Of a DNA stretch of 64,000 nucleotides, positions 3,345 through 50,127 are shown piece after piece. The notes beneath the pieces are model-generated. The model made no database searches. It saw nothing but the letters and a program-made list of their open reading frames with translations, and was not told the origin of the DNA. The position numbers and the translations under genes are program-made. Position 1 is the first letter of the stretch, and the number at the start of each line of letters is the position of its first letter. The DNA comes from Nitrospirota bacterium (lineage in GTDB: Bacteria; Nitrospirota; UBA9217): NCBI GenBank assembly GCA_963840455.1, contig CAWIYV010000007.1, forward strand, positions 394,456 to 458,455. The letters are read 5' to 3'.

Positions 3345-4639
3345 AATTACATGCACTATCCCTGGTCCTGCTGCTTGCGTTGGCCGTTCCACCGGCTGCG
3401 AGAGCTGCTCAGAGCATCACGCTGCAGGATGCCTATGACGCCGCCCTCACGTCTCATGAAACGGTGAAGATCTACCAGGAGAACACGGTCCAGGCGGACA
3501 GCAAGGTCGACCAGGCATGGACCTACATCTACCCCAAGGTGACGGGGCAAGGCTCCTACCTGCGTTATAACGAGACACTTCCCCCGAACGGAGGGGCTCT
3601 CATCTTTCAACCGCTCGGGCAGCTCCAGGCGGCAGTGGTATTGACCCAGCCGTTGTATACCGGCGGCAGGGCGCTGGCTGCCCTCCGGGCCGCCAAGACG
3701 ATGCAGAAATCCAGCAGGGACGATCTTTCGTCGACGAAGCAGAGCCTCCTGCTGAGCGTATCCGAGGCCTATTATGCCGTTCTCCGCTCGCAACGGGTCG
3801 TTGAGGTGAGCAGGGGAGCGCTTGAGCGTATGGAACGCCACAAGAAAGTCACGGAGCGGGAAGCTGCGACGCGACGGACCAAGGCCAATGTTTCGGCGCT
3901 GCTGCGGGCCAATACGCTGGTGGACCAGGCGCGGATCTTCCTCGTAACGGCGGAGAGCAACCTGAAAACGGCCAGGCAGAGGCTCAACCTGCTGACGCAA
4001 CTGCCAGAGGACGCGGCCGTCGCCGATCCCGCTGCCCTGCAGGCTCCTCCGGAACCCGTGCAGAAGCTCCAGGAACAGGCCCTGAAGGACCGGGATGACT
4101 ATGTAAGCTCCCAGCTGGGTCAGAATGTTGCGAAGGAGAATGTCGCCATTACGAGGGGGGCCCATTATCCTCAGATCTATGCAGAAGGCGGGATACGGTA
4201 TATGGACTCGAATCCCGCGACCCTGATGGATGCCACGACCTATTACGGGGGCGTCGTCTTGCAGGTCCCTATCTTCGAAGGCGGGCTGATGAAGGCCGAG
4301 GTCGCTGAGGCGCGTTCCAAGCAGCGCCAGTCCGAGTTGTCCACGGAGCTCCTGAAGCGGACCATTCAGAACGAGGTCGCCGAGGCATATCTCAACTATC
4401 AGACGCTCAGTACCGTGCTCGAAACGACAAAAACCCAGTTCGAATCTGCGCGCAAGAACTTTGATACGGTCGAAAGCCTTTTTTCCGAGGGACTGCTCCC
4501 AAGCCTTTCGGTCATTGACGCGCAGCAGGCGTTGTTCCTCGCCGAACGGGAGCTGGTGGCAGCCTCCATCGAACAGCAGCTGGCGATCCTGAGGCTCCAG
4601 AGGTCCATCGGCGTGCTCGGAAAACAGACGAGATCATAG
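3341..4639 (+). CDS. TolC-like outer membrane efflux protein (OMF)
   Basis: Signal peptide, two OEP repeat halves, conserved LYTGG, coiled-coil-rich. Confidence 0.8.
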   Translation: MKLHALSLVLLLALAVPPAARAAQSITLQDAYDAALTSHETVKIYQENTVQADSKVDQAWTYIYPKVTGQGSYLRYNETLPPNGGALIFQPLGQLQAAVVLTQPLYTGGRALAALRAAKTMQKSSRDDLSSTKQSLLLSVSEAYYAVLRSQRVVEVSRGALERMERHKKVTEREAATRRTKANVSALLRANTLVDQARIFLVTAESNLKTARQRLNLLTQLPEDAAVADPAALQAPPEPVQKLQEQALKDRDDYVSSQLGQNVAKENVAITRGAHYPQIYAEGGIRYMDSNPATLMDATTYYGGVVLQVPIFEGGLMKAEVAEARSKQRQSELSTELLKRTIQNEVAEAYLNYQTLSTVLETTKTQFESARKNFDTVESLFSEGLLPSLSVIDAQQALFLAERELVAASIEQQLAILRLQRSIGVLGKQTRS

Positions 4640-4652
4640 GACAAGGATACCC

Positions 4653-7600
4653 ATGAAACTTCCTGAGATATCGATCAAGCGTCCCGTATTCATGACCATG
4701 GTAGGCCTTGCGCTCATCGTGTTCGGCCTGGTGGCGTTCCCGAAGCTTGCCCTTGATCTCTTTCCGAAGATCGACTTCCCAGTGGTGAACATTACGACGA
4801 AGCTGGTCGGCGCGAGCCCCGAGATCATGGAAGTCGACGTTACGGACATCGTCGAAGAGGCCGTGAACACGATCAACGGCGTCAAGTCCATCACGTCCCG
4901 GAGCATGGAGGAATATTCCATCGTCACCGTGGAGTTCTTCCTCGAGCGCAATCTCGAACAGTCCGCCCAGGATGTGCGGGACAAAGTGGCCGCTGTTCGC
5001 AACCGCCTCCCGAAGGACACGGAGCCGCCGGTGATCGAAAAGATCAGCCCCGAGGACCAGCCCATCGTCTGGATCGCGGTCTGGGGCGACCGGTCCGTCA
5101 AGGACCTGACGCATTATGCCGACAAGGTATTGAAGCGCGACATCGAGAAGATCCCCGGTGTGGGATCGGTTACGATCAGCGGCGGCCGGACCCGTCAGAT
5201 ACGCTTCTGGCTGGACCGGAAAAAGCTGGAGTCTGTGTCGCTCACGGCGGACGATGTGAAACAAGCGCTTGGTCTGGAGCACCGCGAGGTCCCGGGAGGC
5301 CGGATCGAGAACCACCGCATTGAGTACATTGTCAAGACCAAGGGCGAATATGAGACTCCCGCGTCGTTCAACGATATGGTGATCACCTACCGGCACGGCA
5401 GGCTCATCAGGCTTCGGGATATCGGGAGGGCGGAGGACGGACTGGAGGACGAGCGTTCAATCACGCGGTTCAATGGCAAGACGAGCGTCGGCCTTTCGGT
5501 CAAGCGCCAATCAGGCGAGAATACCGTCGCGGTCGCGGAGCGGGTCAAGGCAGCCGTTGCCGCCACCCGTCCGCCGCAGGGCATGAAACTGGACATCACC
5601 TTTGACCAGTCGAAGTTCATCCGCCGTTCCATCGAGGATGTCCAGATATCGCTCTGGCTCGGCGCAGGCCTCGCCGTTCTCATTATCTTCGTCTTTCTCA
5701 GGAGCGTCCGGAGCACGTTGATCAGCGCCGTGGCGCTACCCACGTCGGTGATTGCGACCTTTGCCTTCATCCAGGTCTTCGGATTCACCCTGAACATCAT
5801 GACCATGCTCGGTCTGTCGCTCTCCATCGGCATCCTGATCGACGACTCTATCGTGGTGCTCGAGAACATCTACCGCAGGATGGAGGAAGGGGAGCCGCCG
5901 ATGCAGGCATCGCAGGAAGGAGCCTCAGAGATCGGCCTGGCGGTCATGGCCACTACCCTGTCCATCGTGGCCGTGTTTGTGCCCGTGGCGTTCATGAAGG
6001 GCATTGTGGGCAAGTTCTTTTTCGAGTTCGGCATCACGGTCACGGTTGCGGTCCTGATCTCCCTGTTCGTATCCCTGACGCTCACGCCCATGCTGACCTC
6101 CCGGTTCCTGAGCTACACCAAGAAGCATGGCAAGGTCTATCTGTTCATCGAGAAAGGCTTCGACGCGGTGTTCGGTGTCTATCGCCCGCTTCTTGGATGG
6201 GCGCTCCGGAACCGTTGGAAGGTCATTCTGATGGCGCTGGCCAGCGTTGTCGCAGGCATTGCCCTCTTCATGGTCCTGGGCAAGGAATTCCTGCCGGCCG
6301 AGGACCAGGGACGGTACATGGTAAGGTTGGAGACGCCCATAGACTATTCGCTGTCGCGCGCCGACAGCGCCATGCGGAAGATAGACGAGCAGCTCCGTCT
6401 GCGGCCGGAGGTGCTGAGCACCTTCTATGTCACCGGTTCCGACCTCACTCCCGATATCAACAAGAGCCGGATCTACGTGAACATGAAGGAGCGGAAGGAC
6501 CGGAGCATCATACAGATCGACTCGATGAAGCAGGTACGCGATTCTCTTGCAAGCCTGCCGGACATCAAGCCGTCGGTGGAAATGATCGCCATGGTAGGGG
6601 GCGGCATGCGGTCGGTCCCGATCCAGCTCATGATCCAGGGAAGGGACATCGAGGACCTGAACAAACGGACGCTCGCCATTAGGGACGAGTTCGCGAAACT
6701 GCCCGGCATCGTGGACGTGGACACGTCCATCGAGACCGGCAAGCCCGAGGTGCGGGTCCATATCGATCGCGAGAAAGCGGCGAATTTCGGGGTGAGCGCC
6801 GCGTCCATCGGGAACACGGTCAATACCATGATCGGCGGAGAGATCGTGGGCAAGTATAAGGACGAAAAGGAAGGCGAGCGCTACGACATCGTGGCGCGCC
6901 TGACAGCCCCGGAAAGGGACCAACCCTCTGCCCTGGATATGCTCTGGGTCCGCTCATCAACAGGCGAACTGGTGCGCATGAAGGATGTTACCAGCATCGA
7001 GACCGGAAAGGGCCCCACCATCATCATGCACTATAACCGGCAGCGGGCCGCCACACTGTTCGCGGGAACGGAAAAGACCAAGCCCATGGCCGGGGCCATG
7101 ACCGATCTTGACAAGATCGTCAAGAAGAACATAAGCCCTGATATTTCCACCCGGTACGTTGGCATGGCCGACGCCATGCTGGACGCCTTCAAGAACATCG
7201 CCTTTGCCCTGGTTATCGCGATCATCATGGTCTACATGATCCTGGCGTCCCAGTTCGAGAGCTTCGTGCATCCCTTTACGATCATGTTCTCGCTGCCCGT
7301 GAGCCTCATCGGCGCCATGGGGCTCCTTATGGTCACGGGAGAGCGGATCAGCATATACAGCCTTATCGGCATCATCATGCTCATGGGCCTGGTGACCAAG
7401 AACGCCATTCTTCTGGTCGACTATACCATTACGCTCCGGAGCAGGGGAATGGGGCGGGATGATGCGCTTCTGAAAGCCGGTCCAGTCCGGCTCCGGCCGA
7501 TCATCATGACCACAGCAGCCATGGTATTCGGCATGCTGCCGACAGCCCTCAAGATCGGGGAAGGAGCTGAGTCCCGGGCACCCATGGCCATTGCCGTCAT

Positions 7601-44622: not shown

Positions 44623-45936
44623 TCACACCTTGATATGCAGCATCGGCAGTCCCAGCCGCTGCCGCTTGTTCTCCCCCTTGAACAGATCAGCCTTCCGCAC
44701 CGGCACATCGCCCCGTTCTCCCTCGTGCTGCGCCTGCAGCTTCGTCGGCAGGCTGGCCCCGTGCTGGACCGCGTGCTTGCCGTACTTCCGGGAGAGCTCG
44801 TCGATGCTCTCGTAGATCTTCGCCATCTTCTCGATCTTCGTTGTGTCCTCGAAGAGCCCGTACTGGACGCCGCTCTCCGCCACCAGGCCGGACAGGACGA
44901 CGCCGGTCTGGCGGTAGGGGGTATGGGCCAAGTACAGGCCACGGAACCCCTCGCGCAGCATTGTGAACAGTTCGGACGGGAATGCCGTGGGGCGGCTCAA
45001 CTTCAGTTCAACGCCGGTGCTCCGGTAGTCCTGCTGCCGGAGGAAGATGATCACCCTTTTGGCAACCAGGTGGTAGCGCCGTGCTTTGATGCAGGCGTTC
45101 TCCAAGTTCTTGGAGAGCTGTGCAAAGACAAAGGTCTCGTCCGTAGAGGGAGGGGTGAAGGTCTTTGCCTTGCTGATGGACTGGTAGGCGCTCTTGGTCT
45201 CCGTCGTGACCGGGTAGACGCTCCTGCCGTTCAGTTCGTGCCAGATCTCCTGGTAGGGTTTGGAAAGGTACCTTGTCACGAACGCCTCGTCCTTCAGTGC
45301 GAACTCCAGGGCGGTCCTGATGCCGTGCTTGCCCAGGTAAGCCGCTGTGTTCGGGCCGATACCCCAGACCTTCTCCACGGGCAGCTTCCCGAGGAAGAGA
45401 TGGATGTCCCTGCCGGGGATCAGCGTGATGCCGTGGGGCTTCTTGTGCTTCGATCCGATCTTTGCCAGGACCTTCGAGAGGCTTACCCCGACGGATACTG
45501 ACAGCCCCAGCTCCTGCTCGATGGCTTCCTGCATCTTCAGTGCAATCGTCCCGTAGGGGCCGTGAAATGTCCTCCTGAGGCCGGTCAGGTCCACGAAGGC
45601 TTCGTCGATGGAGTATTCCTCAACGTCCGGCGAAAAGCGTCTTAATATTTCGAACATGCGCACCGAAAAGAGGCTGTAGGTCTCGTAGTCCGACGGGAGG
45701 ATGACGGCGTCGGGGCAGAGCTTTTTCACGTCCGAGAGGCGCACTCCGCGCTGCACGCCGCGCGCCTTGGCCTCGTAGCTCGCCGCGGCCACGATGCCGC
45801 GCTCCTTGCCGGTGATGACCGGCCTGCCGCGCAGCTCCGGGTGGATGGCCTGCTCGCAGGAGGCGAAGAAGGCGTCGGCGTCCAGGTGGAGGATGGCGCG
45901 GGGCCAGGAGGAGATGATGAGGGGTTGGTTGGACAT
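44623..45936 (-). CDS. Y-family DNA polymerase, UmuC-like (catalytic residues intact)
   Basis: HLDADAFFASCE and SIDEAFVDLTG catalytic motifs. N-terminal block resembles UmuC more than DinB. 437 aa. Confidence 0.75.
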   Translation of the reverse strand: MSNQPLIISSWPRAILHLDADAFFASCEQAIHPELRGRPVITGKERGIVAAASYEAKARGVQRGVRLSDVKKLCPDAVILPSDYETYSLFSVRMFEILRRFSPDVEEYSIDEAFVDLTGLRRTFHGPYGTIALKMQEAIEQELGLSVSVGVSLSKVLAKIGSKHKKPHGITLIPGRDIHLFLGKLPVEKVWGIGPNTAAYLGKHGIRTALEFALKDEAFVTRYLSKPYQEIWHELNGRSVYPVTTETKSAYQSISKAKTFTPPSTDETFVFAQLSKNLENACIKARRYHLVAKRVIIFLRQQDYRSTGVELKLSRPTAFPSELFTMLREGFRGLYLAHTPYRQTGVVLSGLVAESGVQYGLFEDTTKIEKMAKIYESIDELSRKYGKHAVQHGASLPTKLQAQHEGERGDVPVRKADLFKGENKRQRLGLPMLHIKV

Positions 45937-46000
45937 AAGGTAAAACCCGACACGGAGACGGGGGACGCGGATTTACGCGGATCAATACAAGGGACAGGGA

Positions 46001-46051
46001 ACACGCGCCTGACGCGCTGCCTTTGGCGCGTCGCTGTGGACCCGCCTTGTT
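46001..46051. repeat. GC-rich hairpin-containing ~50-bp repeat, copy A (GACGCGC-loop-GCGCGTC ... GCTGTGGACCCGCCTTGTT)
   Basis: Direct repeat of copy B (about 85% identity over the ~30-bp core). Confidence 0.65.
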
Positions 46052-46093
46052 AGAATTCTCATTGGGTTTTATGTAGTCCCAGTGATACAGGAC

Positions 46094-46573
46094 CTACAAC
46101 GGGACAACGCCGCGTGATGTGATATTGTATTTGTGAATTGATTTTATGCTGTGCTTGTTGAGATCGTGATCAACTTGAATTTCTAATGTCGTCCCAGTCC
46201 AACGGCACGAGAGGTAGATCTGGCCTTTATAGTTCAATTCGATTGGAGATAGGAGCTTCTTTTTTGATAGATCAAGGATGTTAACTCTAGATTTGCATCC
46301 ATCATCTGCGCAATAAGGCAGTGCAATCAGATTATGTTCCAGGTTTAGAAGGGGCTGACCCGCGGCATCATTCTTACCCAAAGTGATTAATGTGCTTCCA
46401 ATTTTGATTTGATAGACTGTATCCCGACCTTCATAAACACCCGTCCAGTACATTACGATCTTGTCTCCGCTCGGAAGTACTTCTTGAGTGGTCCATGTTC
46501 GATCAGCGGCATAAGATAATGCCACTACGTTAGCGAATACAAGAACCGTCAGAATAGTTTGTTTAATCATATT
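46094..46573 (-). CDS. Hypothetical secreted protein (AT-rich gene)
   Basis: Start at MNMIKQ, signal peptide. Visibly lower GC than the flanks. Confidence 0.45.
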   Translation of the reverse strand, partial: NMIKQTILTVLVFANVVALSYAADRTWTTQEVLPSGDKIVMYWTGVYEGRDTVYQIKIGSTLITLGKNDAAGQPLLNLEHNLIALPYCADDGCKSRVNILDLSKKKLLSPIELNYKGQIYLSCRWTGTTLEIQVDHDLNKHSIKSIHKYNITSRGVVPL

Positions 46574-46590
46574 CATCCACCTTGGGACTA

Positions 46591-46641
46591 ACACGCCGGT
46601 CACGCGCCGCCCCTTGGCGCGACGCTGTGGACCGGCTTGTT
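46591..46641. repeat. GC-rich ~50-bp repeat, copy B
   Basis: TTGGCGCGACGCTGTGGACCGGCTTGTT core shared with copy A. Confidence 0.65.
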
Positions 46642-46657
46642 GTCGTATTTCTTTCGG

Positions 46658-47086
46658 TTATGGCGTGATAGAGTACTTGCCGTTTACATCAGAGGCGATA
46701 ACACCATCAGGCGAATGAACCCAAAATAGGTTCAGATGTAAATATTTATTTTCCGCATCGATCCAAGCATATCCTAAGTCCCAATGATGCATATTGGTCT
46801 TTATATCTTCAATCGAATAATAATAGCCTTTTTGATTGCGATAAGACCAGTCACGCCCTTTGCCAGATAAGCTGATTTTAAAGTGAAGGGTTTCTTTTGG
46901 GAAGGTACCTTCAGGTGTTATCAATTGCCAATGAAGTTTTTGAGTAGTTACGTTGAGTAGGTATCCGCCATCGGGTTGAGGTGATATGGAATAATCTTTA
47001 TTAATTGTACTTCCTAAGCCGAACACGGAAAGATACACAACGAATAACACGGCAAGGCCAATCAGCAAATGTTTTCGCTTTACCAT
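46658..47086 (-). CDS. Hypothetical secreted/membrane-anchored protein (AT-rich gene)
   Basis: N-terminal TM/signal MVKRKHLLIGLAVLFVVYLSVFGLG. Confidence 0.45.
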   Translation of the reverse strand: MVKRKHLLIGLAVLFVVYLSVFGLGSTINKDYSISPQPDGGYLLNVTTQKLHWQLITPEGTFPKETLHFKISLSGKGRDWSYRNQKGYYYSIEDIKTNMHHWDLGYAWIDAENKYLHLNLFWVHSPDGVIASDVNGKYSITP

Positions 47087-47164
47087 AGCTCTCCTGCAAG
47101 ATTTCGAATGATAAATCCGACGCTAAAGTTTTTTACCAGATAACAAGATGTTATCGGAACGGAA

Positions 47165-47290
47165 ACCGTCATCTACATATATATACAACTATCTATCGGT
47201 ATATGGATCCATCTACCAGTAGATGACGAACTGCCATATACCGGTAGATGGTTTTTCAGTTGTTAATGTCATTCGGAATCATCTACCTGT
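47165..47290. repeat. Iteron-like array: five copies of CATCTAC/GTAGATG in ~120 bp, including a perfect CATCTAC-CA-GTAGATG palindrome (47210..47225)
   Basis: Read directly. Located in an AT-rich intergenic region 5-prime of the minus-strand gene at 47086. Confidence 0.6.
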
Positions 47291-47682
47291 ATATGCTTTT
47301 CCAAAGGTGTACCGCCAATCTTTCCGTATTTCACAAACCATAGTTTCTTCTCCGGGTCCCACCACCCGCCCGCTGCTTTGGCATGCAATCGTGACGGCAT
47401 GTCGAAAGCGTCGATGTGCAGAGGCACAAGCGTGTCGACCGCAAATCGTGGTGGAGGAGGGGTCCAGTCAGTCCTTTCCACGATCAACTCGACAGTCTTC
47501 AACCGCTGCCGCGACTCCTTGTCATACTTGAAACGAACGCAGAGCAGGGCATCGCCGTACTGTTCCACGAGCCTTTTGGTCCCAGGCTGCCCCGGTTTGA
47601 GAATCAATCGCGTTTTCATTGGACGTTTTGAACAATTCCAGCTAAGCGCTCTTTTGATGGTGAGAGGTATACCAGTCGACAA
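47269..47682 (-). CDS. Hypothetical protein with a C-terminal GGWWDPEKKLWFV motif
   Basis: 137 aa, AT-rich. No confident family call. Confidence 0.35.
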   Translation of the reverse strand: MSTGIPLTIKRALSWNCSKRPMKTRLILKPGQPGTKRLVEQYGDALLCVRFKYDKESRQRLKTVELIVERTDWTPPPPRFAVDTLVPLHIDAFDMPSRLHAKAAGGWWDPEKKLWFVKYGKIGGTPLEKHIQVDDSE

Positions 47683-47914
47683 GCTGGCGTATCATTTTTT
47701 GATACGAGGTGTGATGTTTCTTGGCCTCTTTCTTAAAGAACTCCACACTCGACTTTTTCAGGGCGATAGTCACCTTGATATTGTCTTCTTTAAGAACAAG
47801 TTGCTCAGGCGGCGGAAGAAAGTCATCGATCACTTTCAGTTTTCCAATCGGCTCATCCGAATATTTAATTTTGCTCTTCATATATTTTCTTTCCTTTCCT
47901 CCAATATCCCGCAC
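47642..47914 (-). CDS. brnA: BrnA-type antitoxin (CopG/RHH-like)
   Basis: C-terminal KKSSVEFFKKEAKKHHTSYQKMIRQLVDWY matches the BrnA pattern. Overlaps the upstream brnT. Confidence 0.6.
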   Translation of the reverse strand: MRDIGGKERKYMKSKIKYSDEPIGKLKVIDDFLPPPEQLVLKEDNIKVTIALKKSSVEFFKKEAKKHHTSYQKMIRQLVDWYTSHHQKSA

Positions 47915-48167
47915 CGTAAATGCGGATAGTCTCTCCTCGAAAGGTGAACCGTACCGTTATGATGCCTTCGCCGACGCGGCCGATACAATAATATCGATCT
48001 TCTTCCGTGCTATGCTCGATATCCTCAACGATGATGCGATGAGGATCAAGAAAGGCCTGCTGGGCAAGCGAGAGGGGCATCCCATGTTTCTTCTGGTTCT
48101 CTTTGTCTTTTTCCGCATCCCACTCAAAACGGATTTTCTTCACTGGGGCCACCTTACCACAAAGCAT
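47865..48167 (-). CDS. brnT: BrnT-type toxin (DUF497 ribonuclease toxin)
   Basis: FEWDAEKDKENQKKHG...DPHRII...RIYGAGYWRK pattern of the BrnT/DUF497 family. Confidence 0.6.
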   Translation of the reverse strand: MLCGKVAPVKKIRFEWDAEKDKENQKKHGMPLSLAQQAFLDPHRIIVEDIEHSTEEDRYYCIGRVGEGIITVRFTFRGETIRIYGAGYWRKGKKIYEEQN

Positions 48168-48233
48168 TTAATTGGGCAATATAAATATATGGCAAATTAT
48201 ATGGAATTAGGGGCGATACTTTCACATTGACGG

Positions 48234-48827
48234 TCACTTGTATTTTCTCACCACCGCCGTCACGACGCCGGCTACTTTAAGCTCGTTCTTAGGCTTGATG
48301 GGCTGGTACTTGGGATTGGCGGGGACGAGGGTGACGGTGTCGCCGCGCTTGCGGAGATATTTCATGGTCCACTCTCCGTCCACCTGGGCGATGACGATGT
48401 CGCCGCTTTTCGGCGTCTGGCCCTTGTCCACAATGACCATGTCGCCGGGCAGGATGCCCGCGCCGGACATGGAGTCGCCGGATACTTTTAAGAGAAAGGT
48501 GGCCTCGCGGTTCTGGATGAGGAAATCGTCGAGCGAGAGGGTGTCCACCAGCTCTTCCTCGGCAGGAGAGGGGAATCCGGCCTCGACCGTGCCGAGCACC
48601 TTGACGGGCTTTGCGATCGCCAGGGGCAGCAGCCTGCCTTTCTTGTCCCGTTCTATGACTCTGAGCTTCTCAAGCTTGCCGATGAACTTGAAGACCGCGT
48701 TCTTCGACCTGAGGCCGGTCAGATCGCCGATCTCGGAGTAGCTCGGCATCCTGCCGCTGCTTTTGAAGAACTTCCTGATCTCCTGGATGCGGGACTGGAC
48801 GGTCGCGTCTTTTAGTGTTCGTGGCAT
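48234..48827 (-). CDS. lexA: LexA repressor (wHTH plus S24 peptidase)
   Basis: Start at MPRTLKD. Cleavage-site region VEAGFP (Ala-Gly), catalytic GDSM...K. 198 aa. Confidence 0.85.
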   Translation of the reverse strand: MPRTLKDATVQSRIQEIRKFFKSSGRMPSYSEIGDLTGLRSKNAVFKFIGKLEKLRVIERDKKGRLLPLAIAKPVKVLGTVEAGFPSPAEEELVDTLSLDDFLIQNREATFLLKVSGDSMSGAGILPGDMVIVDKGQTPKSGDIVIAQVDGEWTMKYLRKRGDTVTLVPANPKYQPIKPKNELKVAGVVTAVVRKYK

Positions 48828-48866
48828 GGGAATATTATAAGTGAACGAACGTTCACTTGTCAAGGA
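48828..48866 (-). promoter_or_regulatory. lexA promoter: TTGACA-18 bp-TATAAT with the palindrome AAGTGAACG(A/T)ACGTTCACTT (GAAC-N4-GTTC, Cheo-box-like) in the spacer; -10 lies 6 nt from the ATG, so the transcript is leaderless or near-leaderless
   Basis: Minus-strand reading tccTTGACAAGTGAACGTTCGTTCACTTATAATATTCCCATG. Confidence 0.6.
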
Positions 48867-48940: not shown

Positions 48941-48985
48941 TGGAGCGGGTGGCGGGACTCGAATCCGTGACCTCAACCTTGGCAA
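48941..48985 (-). repeat. 45-nt duplicate of the tRNA-Gly 3-prime end (att-like direct repeat, one mismatch)
   Basis: tggagcgggtggcgggactcgaatccgtgacctcaaccttggcaa matches 50052..50096. Confidence 0.75.
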
Positions 48986-49078
48986 ATCAACAATTTGTAT
49001 ATGTGTTCGGAAAAAAGATATGATGTTGCGGCAGCGGCACTTATTGATAAGCATCCAGAAAAGGCAGAGGTGGTGAAA

Positions 49079-49528
49079 CTATTGTTCGTCGGCAATCCTG
49101 TATTTCTTTTTTAAGACTTGCGTTACGCGTGTTGCGTCGTATATTAAGCCATCGCCTTCCGGTTTTTCTTTGAAACAGAGAATTGTATTCGACGCACTTG
49201 GCATAGAAATATCATATGTTTCACCGCCAGGCGTGGTCGTTATCTGGGACGGCGTAGTATATGCGGAAACTGATGAGTCTTTAACGGATTTAACAATGAC
49301 AAAATATCTGAATCCATTTTGAAGAGTCAATTCCGCTGAGCGGAGGAGAGCAAAATCGGATTCTATTTCATGGCCTGTATAACTATTTCCCCGAAAACTT
49401 ACTTGGAATATATTGTCGCCAAGTTGACTTTCAGAATATCCACCGGTGAAACCTTCCGGTTGATACTTCGTTGCAGCACAGCCCATAAGAAAGATAACCA
49501 ATGCAAAGAGAATGAGGAATATTCGCAT
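49079..49528 (-). CDS. Hypothetical lipoprotein (AT-rich cargo gene)
   Basis: Lipobox LMGCAA. Confidence 0.5.
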   Translation of the reverse strand: MRIFLILFALVIFLMGCAATKYQPEGFTGGYSESQLGDNIFQVSFRGNSYTGHEIESDFALLRSAELTLQNGFRYFVIVKSVKDSSVSAYTTPSQITTTPGGETYDISMPSASNTILCFKEKPEGDGLIYDATRVTQVLKKKYRIADEQ

Positions 49529-49785
49529 AAATTACCCCCCCCTTAATGAAATATTATCATAAAGCATCGCGAAAGGTTTAGATATGTGGAGTACCGACGC
49601 GGCACGGAGAAAGCACGGACAAGACACGGACGCGGGGACTTGGGGATAGGAAATATAAGCCCTTCTACGGGGGCGTTATGAGGTCTTATAGGTCCGGCGT
49701 GTTTTAAGGGCCTGAAATTGCCATTGACCTGTTTAGGAGAAAAGAACCATGAAAAACAAGAAGACACCGGAGACGGTGATAGGGA

Positions 49786-49956
49786 ATGCTGTGAGTCTAT
49801 TGGCTGGTCATGAAGGGCGTCGATCTGGCAACGGTCAAGGAACTCCTGGGTCATGCAGATATCAAGATGACTTTGCGCTACGCATATCTGGCATTGGCGC
49901 ATAAGAAAAAAGCCATCGATATACTTCGGAGGGAAGATCAGGATGGCAGCGGTGAA
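49786..49956 (+). pseudogene. Tyrosine recombinase (phage-integrase family) C-terminal fragment, ~57 codons
   Basis: Translation YWLVMKGVDLATVKELLGHADIKMTLRYAYLALAHKKKAIDIL contains the LGHxxxxxTxxYxH C-terminal box with the catalytic Tyr. An upstream in-frame stop truncates it. Confidence 0.7.
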
Positions 49957-50051
49957 GCAGTCTGAACAGTTGCGAAATGCTGATACTGCACAATTTACAT
50001 CACAGTCCAAAGAAAAAGGGTTATCCGTTACGGATAACCCCTTGATAATAA

Positions 50052-50127
50052 TGGAGCGGGTGGCGGGACTCGAACCCGTGACCTCAACCTTGGCAAGGTC
50101 GCGCTCTACCAACTGAGCTACACCCGC
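50052..50127 (-). tRNA. tRNA-Gly (GCC), with encoded CCA
   Basis: Reverse complement GCGGGTGTAGCTCAGTTGGTAGAGCGCGACCTTGCCAAGGTTGAGGTCACGGGTTCGAGTCCCGCCACCCGCTCCA: 7-bp acceptor, D and T arms, anticodon loop TT-GCC-AA. Confidence 0.85.

Follow-up and report, generated by a model that had tools for sequence, protein, structure and literature searches.

Probable integron cassettes between lexA and dinB of a Nitrospirota bacterium, with a conserved palindromic platform as their candidate entry site

In a 64,000-nt stretch of a Nitrospirota genome (contig CAWIYV010000007.1 of assembly GCA_963840455.1, positions 394,456 to 458,455; hereafter the window), a 2.3-kb block of small genes lies between lexA and a dinB-type gene for a Y-family DNA polymerase. 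We found that two GC-rich repeats in this block can be identified with high confidence as integron attC sites, each closing a cassette with one small open reading frame (ORF). The dinB-proximal half of the block, 47143..46002, is a two-cassette integron array and by definition a group of clustered attC sites that lacks an integron integrase (CALIN), because its pair of attC sites is separated by 590 bp on the same strand and there is no integrase in the 64-kb window. The array starts at the end of a palindromic platform, found again in other contigs, that may act as its entry site (attI).

The attC sites and their cassettes

The original prediction, made from the window alone, described two small exported-protein genes on the minus strand, each followed by a GC-rich repeat in a cassette-like layout. 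This arrangement was borne out, both ORFs having an N-terminal signal or anchor. It also held that the repeats lack attC boxes; we found R'' and R' boxes in both, on the minus (coding) strand. The array and the platform before it consist of the following parts.

47144..47295, minus strand: attI-like platform, five 16-bp palindromes CATMTAC-NN-GTAKATG followed by TTTCCGTTCCGATAACATCTTG
46592..47143, minus strand: cassette 1, starting TTATCTGG, with a ribosome-binding site (RBS), ORF142 and, at its end, attC2
47086..46658, minus strand: ORF142, with an N-terminal membrane anchor or signal and the repeat directly 3'
46586..46645, minus strand: attC2, CGACAAC-AAGCC-GGTC[C]AC-stem/loop-GTGACC-GGCGT-G↓TTAGTC
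46002..46591, minus strand: cassette 2, starting TTAGTCCC, with RBS AAGGTGGA, ORF160 and, at its end, attC1
46576..46094, minus strand: ORF160, with a Sec-type signal peptide (...LSYA↓AD) and the repeat directly 3'
45996..46055, minus strand: attC1, TTCTAAC-...-GGTCCAC-stem-...-G↓TTCCCT

The repeats are about 60 bp long and GC-rich, at 46000-46051 and 46590-46641, and their core pattern matches twice in the 64-kb window against 0.04 matches expected. On the minus strand, the R'' box of each ends in AAC (TTCTAAC, CGACAAC) and its R' box opens with GTT (G↓TTCCCT, G↓TTAGTC, the arrow marking the crossover), the two boxes enclosing a GC stem and an L-box pair, GGTC[C]AC/GTGACC, in which one base bulges. 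In full, the coding strand of attC2 reads CGACAAC-AAGCC-GGTCCAC-AGCGTCGCGCC-AAGG-GGCGGCGCGT-GACC-GGCGT-GTTAGTC; its single-stranded DNA is predicted to fold at -22.6 kcal/mol (z -4.6), and the consensus of the family described below at -20.6 kcal/mol (z -4.8), with a bulged C and a bulged A. The 5' arm of attC1 is intact, its 5' half being nearly identical to a metagenomic copy present in contigs L128 and L136, and a short duplication (CAGCGCGT/CAGGCGCGT) stands in place of the 3' arm. Its predicted fold is weak (z -1.5), yet it scores well against the covariance model given next, and we regard attC1 as a likely decayed and probably impaired site.

A box-based pattern scan of metagenomes returned 13 loci, nine of which hold a single tight family in 11 copies (two contigs carry two each, and the L128 and L136 copies are identical) with the consensus AACAAGCCGGTCCACAGCGACGCGCC-loop-GGCGGCGCGTGACCGGCGTGTT. 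The AAC and GTT are invariant in 12/12 family members, the outer stem has compensatory GC/CG swaps at three pairs, and 96% of cells are paired, where slid controls reach 20-48%. We built a covariance model, R1, from 10 metagenomic copies alone, leaving the window copies out. On the minus strand of the window it scored attC2 at 74.1 bits (E 7e-24) and attC1 at 43.5 bits (E 9e-13), and nothing else in the 64 kb was significant (next match 12.3 bits, E 0.19). Likewise, nhmmer found no further repeat copies in the 64-kb window; as the original prediction had implied, the repeat is not a high-copy repetitive extragenic palindromic (REP) element there, both copies in the 64 kb belonging to the array. 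Rfam, which has no attC family, matched neither the repeats nor the platform, and a pattern scan of genome contigs with 15 specified bases gave 120 essentially random matches, none of them a family member by nhmmer. A long AT-rich hairpin, AACCATCTACC...GATAGATAGTT, was considered as a third attC and rejected: R1 gave it only 7.8 bits (E 8.6), it has no bulges, and the palindromic units explain it.

One family member sits in a textbook integron, contig PDVH01000052.1 (L129), which has a divergent integrase gene and an array beginning about 150 nt away from it. Both halves of the integrase gene best match the integron integrase model TIGR02249 (128.5 and 214.2 bits), and the protein is 52% identical to the IntI1 C-terminus. 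The array is made of co-oriented small ORFs each ending in an attC; the family member lies at 2231-2293 (73 bits) and the remaining attCs share its architecture. The integrase gene itself (111-1339) is split by a frameshift into two overlapping ORFs, reflecting a pseudogene or an assembly error. Arrays of same-strand attCs at 0.5-1.7-kb spacing also occur in L132, L135 and L146. In two unrelated contigs, L145 (5745-5765) and L126 (minus strand), the sequence 3' of a family attC is identical, G↓TTGAAGGTGTAG, which suggests that the two arrays share the same next cassette.

Cassette boundaries follow a rule across 11 cassettes: the bases 3' of G↓TT match the complement of the cassette's own attC R'' box at 31/44 positions (binomial p 3e-10), the mark that circular cassettes leave when they are linearised at G↓TT. 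The original prediction had raised intI or rep genes nearby, and neither was found. There is no rep gene near the locus, and tblastn with IntI1 and the L129 IntI found no intI in the 64-kb window or at any platform locus. With no intI adjacent to its platform, the window locus is not a complete integron.

The cargo of cassette 1 is rare, with only four ORF142 homologues among 5.8 billion proteins. One of them (51% identity) lies in L122 (397-1794) just 3' of a Y1_Tnp transposase gene of the IS200/IS605 or REP-associated tyrosine transposase (RAYT) type; this contig is AT-rich and has no attC by the ORF142 homologue.

The palindromic platform before the first cassette

Five CATCTAC/GTAGATG motifs in the AT-rich spacer before cassette 1 had been noticed in the original prediction and called iteron-like. 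The motifs are present, within 47170-47286, and above chance, with 17 in the whole window against 4.7 expected. As iterons they fared less well: no rep gene is linked to them, and they are halves of 16-bp palindromes in a conserved platform that ends at the first-cassette junction. Allowing up to two mismatches, five of the seven window matches to the palindromic 16-mer fall in the platform region, against 0.33 expected. The first palindrome lies inside the 3' end of ORF116, the gene preceding the spacer; the crossover falls at G 47144/T 47143.

The platform, about 150 nt long, recurs in three other contigs, L145, L146 and L127. Palindromes stand at offsets 16, 60/61, 85/86 and 105/106 in the window, L145 and L146, and L127 aligns to the platform. 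Its end is conserved as TTCCGT..GATAAYAWCTTG↓TT, and in all four loci the homology stops at G↓TT. From there the first cassettes start with TTATCTGG, TTCTCCCGG, TTATCTTC and TTAATCC, complementing the R'' box of the first downstream attC, and family attCs lie 3' of the platform in L145 (64 bits), L146 (32 and 60 bits) and L127 (81 bits). Use of the same G↓TT by different first cassettes, with starts complementary to R'', is the outcome expected of repeated attI x attC recombination, and we lean towards the view that the platform functions as an attI.

The gene 5' of the platform, on the same strand, belongs to the ORF116 family in the window, L145 and L146 and is glgP-like in L127. This last copy stands in an unrelated context, so the platform occurs independently of the lexA locus. 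In L127 (1-545), the platform and a cassette with a family attC follow the end of the glgP-like gene; there is no lexA, and a degenerate remnant of the last ~25 nt of ORF116 persists, with no ORF116 coding sequence detected in the contig. L146 carries, at ~4420-4570 between its fourth palindrome and the junction, a ~155-nt insertion rich in small GC hairpins and resembling a miniature inserted element, which the window, L145 and L127 do not have.

The first palindrome, in window 47269-47295, encodes the conserved C-terminus of the ORF116 family, ..LEKHIQVD, so that part of the conservation of the protein may reflect constraint at the level of DNA. In some ORF116 homologues the frame extends through further palindromes (..LYVYTS). 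ORF116 is an obvious candidate for the protein that would bind the 16-bp palindromes.

The lexA-dinB interval in the window and in relatives

Every gene in the 2.3-kb lexA-to-dinB stretch is on the minus strand, co-oriented with lexA and dinB. The order of transcription is lexA, brnT, antitoxin, ORF116, the 182-bp AT-rich spacer, ORF142, repeat, ORF160, repeat, a 59-nt leader and dinB. The features outside the array are these.

48834..48863, minus strand: lexA promoter, TTGACA-18-TATAAT (12/12), its spacer holding the palindrome GAACGAACGTTC (48843-48854)
48234..48827, minus strand: lexA, 197 aa, with Pfam Peptidase_S24 and a weak LexA DNA-binding domain
48225..48196, minus strand: promoter-like site of brnT, from a promoter scan
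47865..48167, minus strand: brnT toxin gene, Pfam BrnT_toxin PF04365 at 70.3 bits (cut-off 34.5), PHROG 'ribonuclease toxin'
47642..47881, minus strand: antitoxin gene, 79 aa, ribbon-helix-helix (RHH)/Arc-like, in the BrnA position and overlapping brnT by 17 nt
47269..47619, minus strand: ORF116, a conserved small protein with an N-terminal beta-rich domain and a DUF5710-like C-terminal motif
44623..45936, minus strand: dinB-type Y-family DNA polymerase gene, 437 aa, Pfam IMS, IMS_C and IMS_HHH, the distal end of the unit

The drop in GC content that the original prediction reported is clear: from about 0.60 in the flanks (lexA 0.59, dinB 0.62) it falls to 0.33-0.47 in the block, with 0.39-0.42 in the cassette bodies, 0.38 in the platform, 0.47 in brnT and 0.42 in the antitoxin gene; the whole block, 45990-48230, has 0.45 overall. 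The block is thus compositionally foreign, as had been proposed, but it is not one AT-rich insertion, because ORF116 has a host-like GC content of 0.54 and the block is therefore a mosaic. ORF116 is a resident gene, not a foreign one. The proposed brnT-brnA pair stood in its toxin half, on the Pfam match. The overlapping antitoxin has only weak matches, to DUF6364 (20.7 bits, sub-threshold) and an Arc-like repressor PHROG, and none to the BrnA model, and R1 found no recognisable attC beside the pair in the window.

ORF116 ends in GGWWDPEKKLWFV, and its match to DUF5710 is sub-threshold (22.7 bits, cut-off 26.5). Homologues with 70-92% identity number more than 900, most of their contigs being very short, and the family has 2378 cluster representatives. 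Its AlphaFold2 (AF2) model has a mean predicted local distance difference test (pLDDT) score of 79.7, and searches for a PDB fold or sequence match, an informative profile match or a DNA-binding fold or family detected none. A gene of this family lies within the lexA-dinB interval in three relatives (L145, L146 and, truncated, L143).

We compared the interval in seven relatives: L137, L139, L141, L143, L145, L146 and a Joint Genome Institute (JGI) contig. L137, the JGI contig, L140/L141 and L143 are DinB relatives at 88-93% identity, and L145 and L146 are the two ORF116-homologue loci with retrievable context, both genes lying downstream of lexA. L145 and L146 are taken as related Nitrospirota; for L145, DinB relatives bear that name. 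The window LexA is 77-88% identical to that of L137, L141, L143, L145 and L146, and an exact-sequence look-up of the window DinB gave no record. Three intervals are partial: L139 is cut before lexA, L145 ends before dinB, and L146 as fetched stops before dinB.

L137: PDDEXK_3 only
JGI contig: 30-aa ORF, 221-aa ORF, PDDEXK_3
L140/L141: PDDEXK_3, HTH/MqsA, NTP_transf_2 with HEPN, UPF0175 with DUF3368
L143: RHH with PemK, truncated ORF116, a higBA-like pair with a decayed attC-like site, an amino-acid permease
L145 (part): PDDEXK_3, ORF115, cassettes
L146 (part): PDDEXK_3, a toxin-antitoxin (TA) pair, a radical-SAM gene, ORF115, at least four cassettes with at least six small ORFs
L139 (part; DinB 93% identical): a Cupin_2 ORF, a weak attC-like site, a 212-aa ORF 5' of dinB

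The gene content is not shared. The lexA-dinB interval is a variable hot spot across the lineage, with co-oriented genes that differ in every relative examined, so that a tight lexA/umuC pairing, which the block had been supposed to split, is not the norm in this lineage.

In relatives, the arms of a long GC-rich inverted repeat enclose the PDDEXK_3 gene (GxxExxY-type) next to lexA, so that the gene occupies the loop (L137 5484-5965, L141 3814-4315, L145 3427-3917, L139 1003-1115; for example CCGCGAAGGCGCGAAGGACGCGAGGAAGG / CCTTTGCGCTCTTCGCGCCTTCGCGG). The arms differ in sequence among genomes and keep their complementarity, and the inverted repeat of L139 is 'empty', with no gene. It may be a separate hairpin-bounded element, mobile or processed. 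L141 also has, at 5560-5900, a tandem duplication of a ~177-bp segment that begins within the 3' end of the HEPN gene and includes a GC hairpin (GGACCGGCGCACACCTCGCCGGTCC).

The palindrome GAACGAACGTTC in the lexA promoter is likely a LexA operator. It is the only LexA-type operator, there being no GAAC-N4-GTTC box before dinB; SOS control of dinB would consequently have to traverse the array, implying damage-inducible co-transcription of the cassettes. The promoter scan found no sigma-70-like promoter on the minus strand of the platform spacer. Between the minus-strand genes there is no T-tract terminator, the scan's one minus-strand match being a weak site inside brnT. SOS-driven read-through from the lexA promoter into the cassettes is a possibility that these features raise, and one we hold tentatively.

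On the other side of lexA lies a decayed island targeted to tRNA-Gly (window 48942-50127).

50052-50127, minus strand: tRNA-Gly(GCC), intact
48942-48986, minus strand: 45-nt duplicate of the tRNA-Gly 3' end
49528..49079: ORF149, a small lipoprotein-like protein
49810-49962, plus strand: tyrosine-recombinase C-terminal remnant, 51 aa, the window's one recombinase trace

Relatives have only ~420 bp between htpX and lexA and nothing at the position of the island. We considered the recombinase remnant as a relic of intI and rejected it, as it lies between the tRNA-Gly and its 3' duplicate, the place of an island integrase, and is absent in relatives. A 12-nt inverted repeat, AATACAAGGGAC / GTCACTTGTATT at 45984-45995 / 48233-48244, brackets the block with 11/12 positions complementary. 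It too was rejected, as terminal repeats or an ancestral hairpin, because one arm is the last codons of lexA and is not conserved in relatives; it is probably due to chance.

Explanations for the array and their implications

The explanation that we favour, and think reasonably probable, is that the block holds a CALIN-type array with a conserved attI-like anchor in the variable middle of a lexA-to-dinB unit. Cassettes would have entered in succession through an integron integrase (IntI), which recombines the folded bottom strand of the attC of a circular cassette with the G↓TT of a double-stranded site. That site would be the end of the conserved 150-nt platform just 3' of ORF116, acting as attI. 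As no intI is adjacent, the integrase would either act in trans, encoded elsewhere in the genome or on a transient element, or have been lost. Each cassette would bring a promoterless AT-rich ORF, its own RBS and a terminal attC, and would probably be transcribed with lexA and dinB upon induction by DNA damage. The brnT/antitoxin pair would be a separate acquisition outside the cassettes, with its own promoter.

Several observations weigh against this explanation. The attC1 site folds poorly and has a degenerate 3' arm, and the 'central spacer' of the family is mostly base-paired, with predicted top-strand bulges (C, A) 3 nt apart, a geometry that differs from the textbook T12''/G20'' spacing. 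The cassette rule holds at only 2/4 positions for each of the two window cassettes, cassette 1 could about as well begin at another crossover, AGTT↓GTAT at ~47187, and the ORF142 homologues in three other contigs (L121-L123) have no attC-like sequence downstream. Only four independent loci were seen to carry the platform, which has no resemblance to any known attI and no integrase beside it at any locus seen; to our knowledge, canonical attI sites always adjoin intI. The intervals of L137 and L141 are filled by genes without recognisable attC, so the hot spot is not purely integron-driven, and the promoter-like site of brnT challenges the predicted co-transcription from the lexA promoter.

A chance landing, in which an off-target IntI used a secondary 'attG'-type GTT and the palindromes are just the 3' flank or regulatory region of ORF116 and play no part in recombination, seems to us unlikely. 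IntI does use loose genomic GWT sites, and insertions near a resident promoter are expressed (bioRxiv 10.1101/2022.09.11.507474); secondary-site integration is listed among the origins of CALINs (Cury et al., PMC4889954); and no intI is adjacent here. But the junction is exact to the nucleotide with four different first cassettes in four loci, L127 among them in its unrelated genomic context, and the first cassettes at all four junctions obey the cassette rule, which together argue for repeated site-specific use and not for one random event. Others of the CALIN origins accepted in the same survey (PMC4889954) are intI loss and rearrangement, and the array could then be the remnant of a complete integron whose intI was deleted or separated, leaving the platform as an orphaned attI. 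The decayed tyrosine-recombinase fragment, divergent and 1-1.7 kb beyond lexA, would suit this history, were it not for the marks of a tRNA-targeting island integrase described above and its absence in relatives. All four platforms, moreover, have ORF116 or a glgP-like gene directly upstream on the same strand, with no intI pseudogene seen, and we consider this origin improbable.

That the 16-bp palindromes are operators of a dimeric DNA-binding protein, ORF116 or another, forming a switch like the cassette promoter (Pc) that governs transcription of what lies downstream, independent of recombination, is conceivable, though we doubt it. The half-sites vary independently (CATCTAC vs CATATAC), a better fit to protein-binding sites than to hairpins, the spacings of 20-26 and 44 bp are kept across loci, and ORF116 is the gene most consistently alongside the palindromes. 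Against such a switch, the spacer has no sigma-70-like minus-strand promoter, ORF116 has no detectable DNA-binding fold or family, and L127 retains the palindromes without ORF116; an operator role is in any case compatible with an attI role and does not exclude it. A reading of the repeats as REP-like elements or terminators, and of the AT-rich motifs as iterons of a defunct integrated replicon, would account for GC-rich hairpins after stop codons, for the ORF142 homologue adjoining a Y1 (IS200/RAYT-type) transposase gene in L122 and for short motifs repeated within an AT-rich stretch. We regard it as highly improbable, since the repeats number only two in 64 kb and lack a T-tract, and members of their family lie next to an integron integrase and, 0.5-1.7 kb apart, in arrays on one strand, with boundaries that obey the cassette rule. 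There is also no rep or par gene, the motifs are palindromic and not direct repeats, and the platforms of relatives stand in chromosomal contexts. Beyond the favoured array with its attI-like anchor, a stronger form, to which we give only a small chance, would make the locus an integrase-detached integron platform, its entry site being palindromes bound by an ORF116-family protein and its array wired into an SOS operon, where LexA cleavage would switch on captured genes together with the error-prone polymerase.

The integron platform is assumed to have three parts, intI, attI and Pc, and CALINs, common yet poorly explained, are mostly portrayed as orphan arrays lacking a defined entry site. 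The window array differs in beginning at a conserved non-coding platform shared with other genomes, each with different cassettes, and in being embedded in an SOS operon. It otherwise has what defines a CALIN (at least two attC <4 kb apart on one strand and no integrase; Cury et al. 2016, PMC4889954), with each of its two same-strand sites after a co-oriented promoterless ORF and no intI near, and it is small, as are most CALINs. IntI-mediated insertion of cassettes at genomic GWT sites (attG, and single attC sites lacking an integron integrase, SALINs; bioRxiv 10.1101/2022.09.11.507474) likewise places cassettes outside a classical integron and 3' of a possibly expressing resident promoter, with crossover at G↓TT. 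Unlike those loose, scattered sites, one precise junction is reused here in four loci after a 150-nt palindrome array. Integrons linked to ilvD in Xanthomonas occupy a fixed chromosomal locus, with intI, sometimes decayed, beside attI and divergent from the array. The window locus resembles sedentary chromosomal integrons (bioRxiv 10.1101/2025.06.18.660453) in its lineage-conserved position, its content that differs between close relatives and the TA genes nearby; it differs from them in that its neighbour is a co-oriented 116-aa gene, with no intI remnant. The attI1 site of class 1 integrons comprises a simple site and the accessory IntI-binding repeats DR1 and DR2. The platform is similar in having accessory repeats 5' of a short inverted-repeat 'simple site' (GATAAC-N5-GTTATC) with the crossover G↓TT at its right end, and dissimilar in sequence, in having 16-bp palindromes in place of GTTA-type direct repeats and in having no adjacent intI. 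It is also unlike plasmid iterons in its palindromes and conserved chromosomal position, and no rep gene lies near the window locus or in L127, L145 and L146.

Should the attI-like reading not hold, the locus is still a new CALIN in a little-studied phylum and a hypervariable hot spot of accessory genes in a core operon. In classical integrons it is the integrase that is under SOS control (PMC3108266). If the reading is right, a conserved entry site would be reused across genomes with no neighbouring integrase, and the driver of the cassettes would be the promoter of an SOS operon that ends in a mutagenic polymerase. The abundant ORF116 family (>2000 clusters) would gain a candidate role, and SOS in these Nitrospirota would also govern the expression of captured genes.

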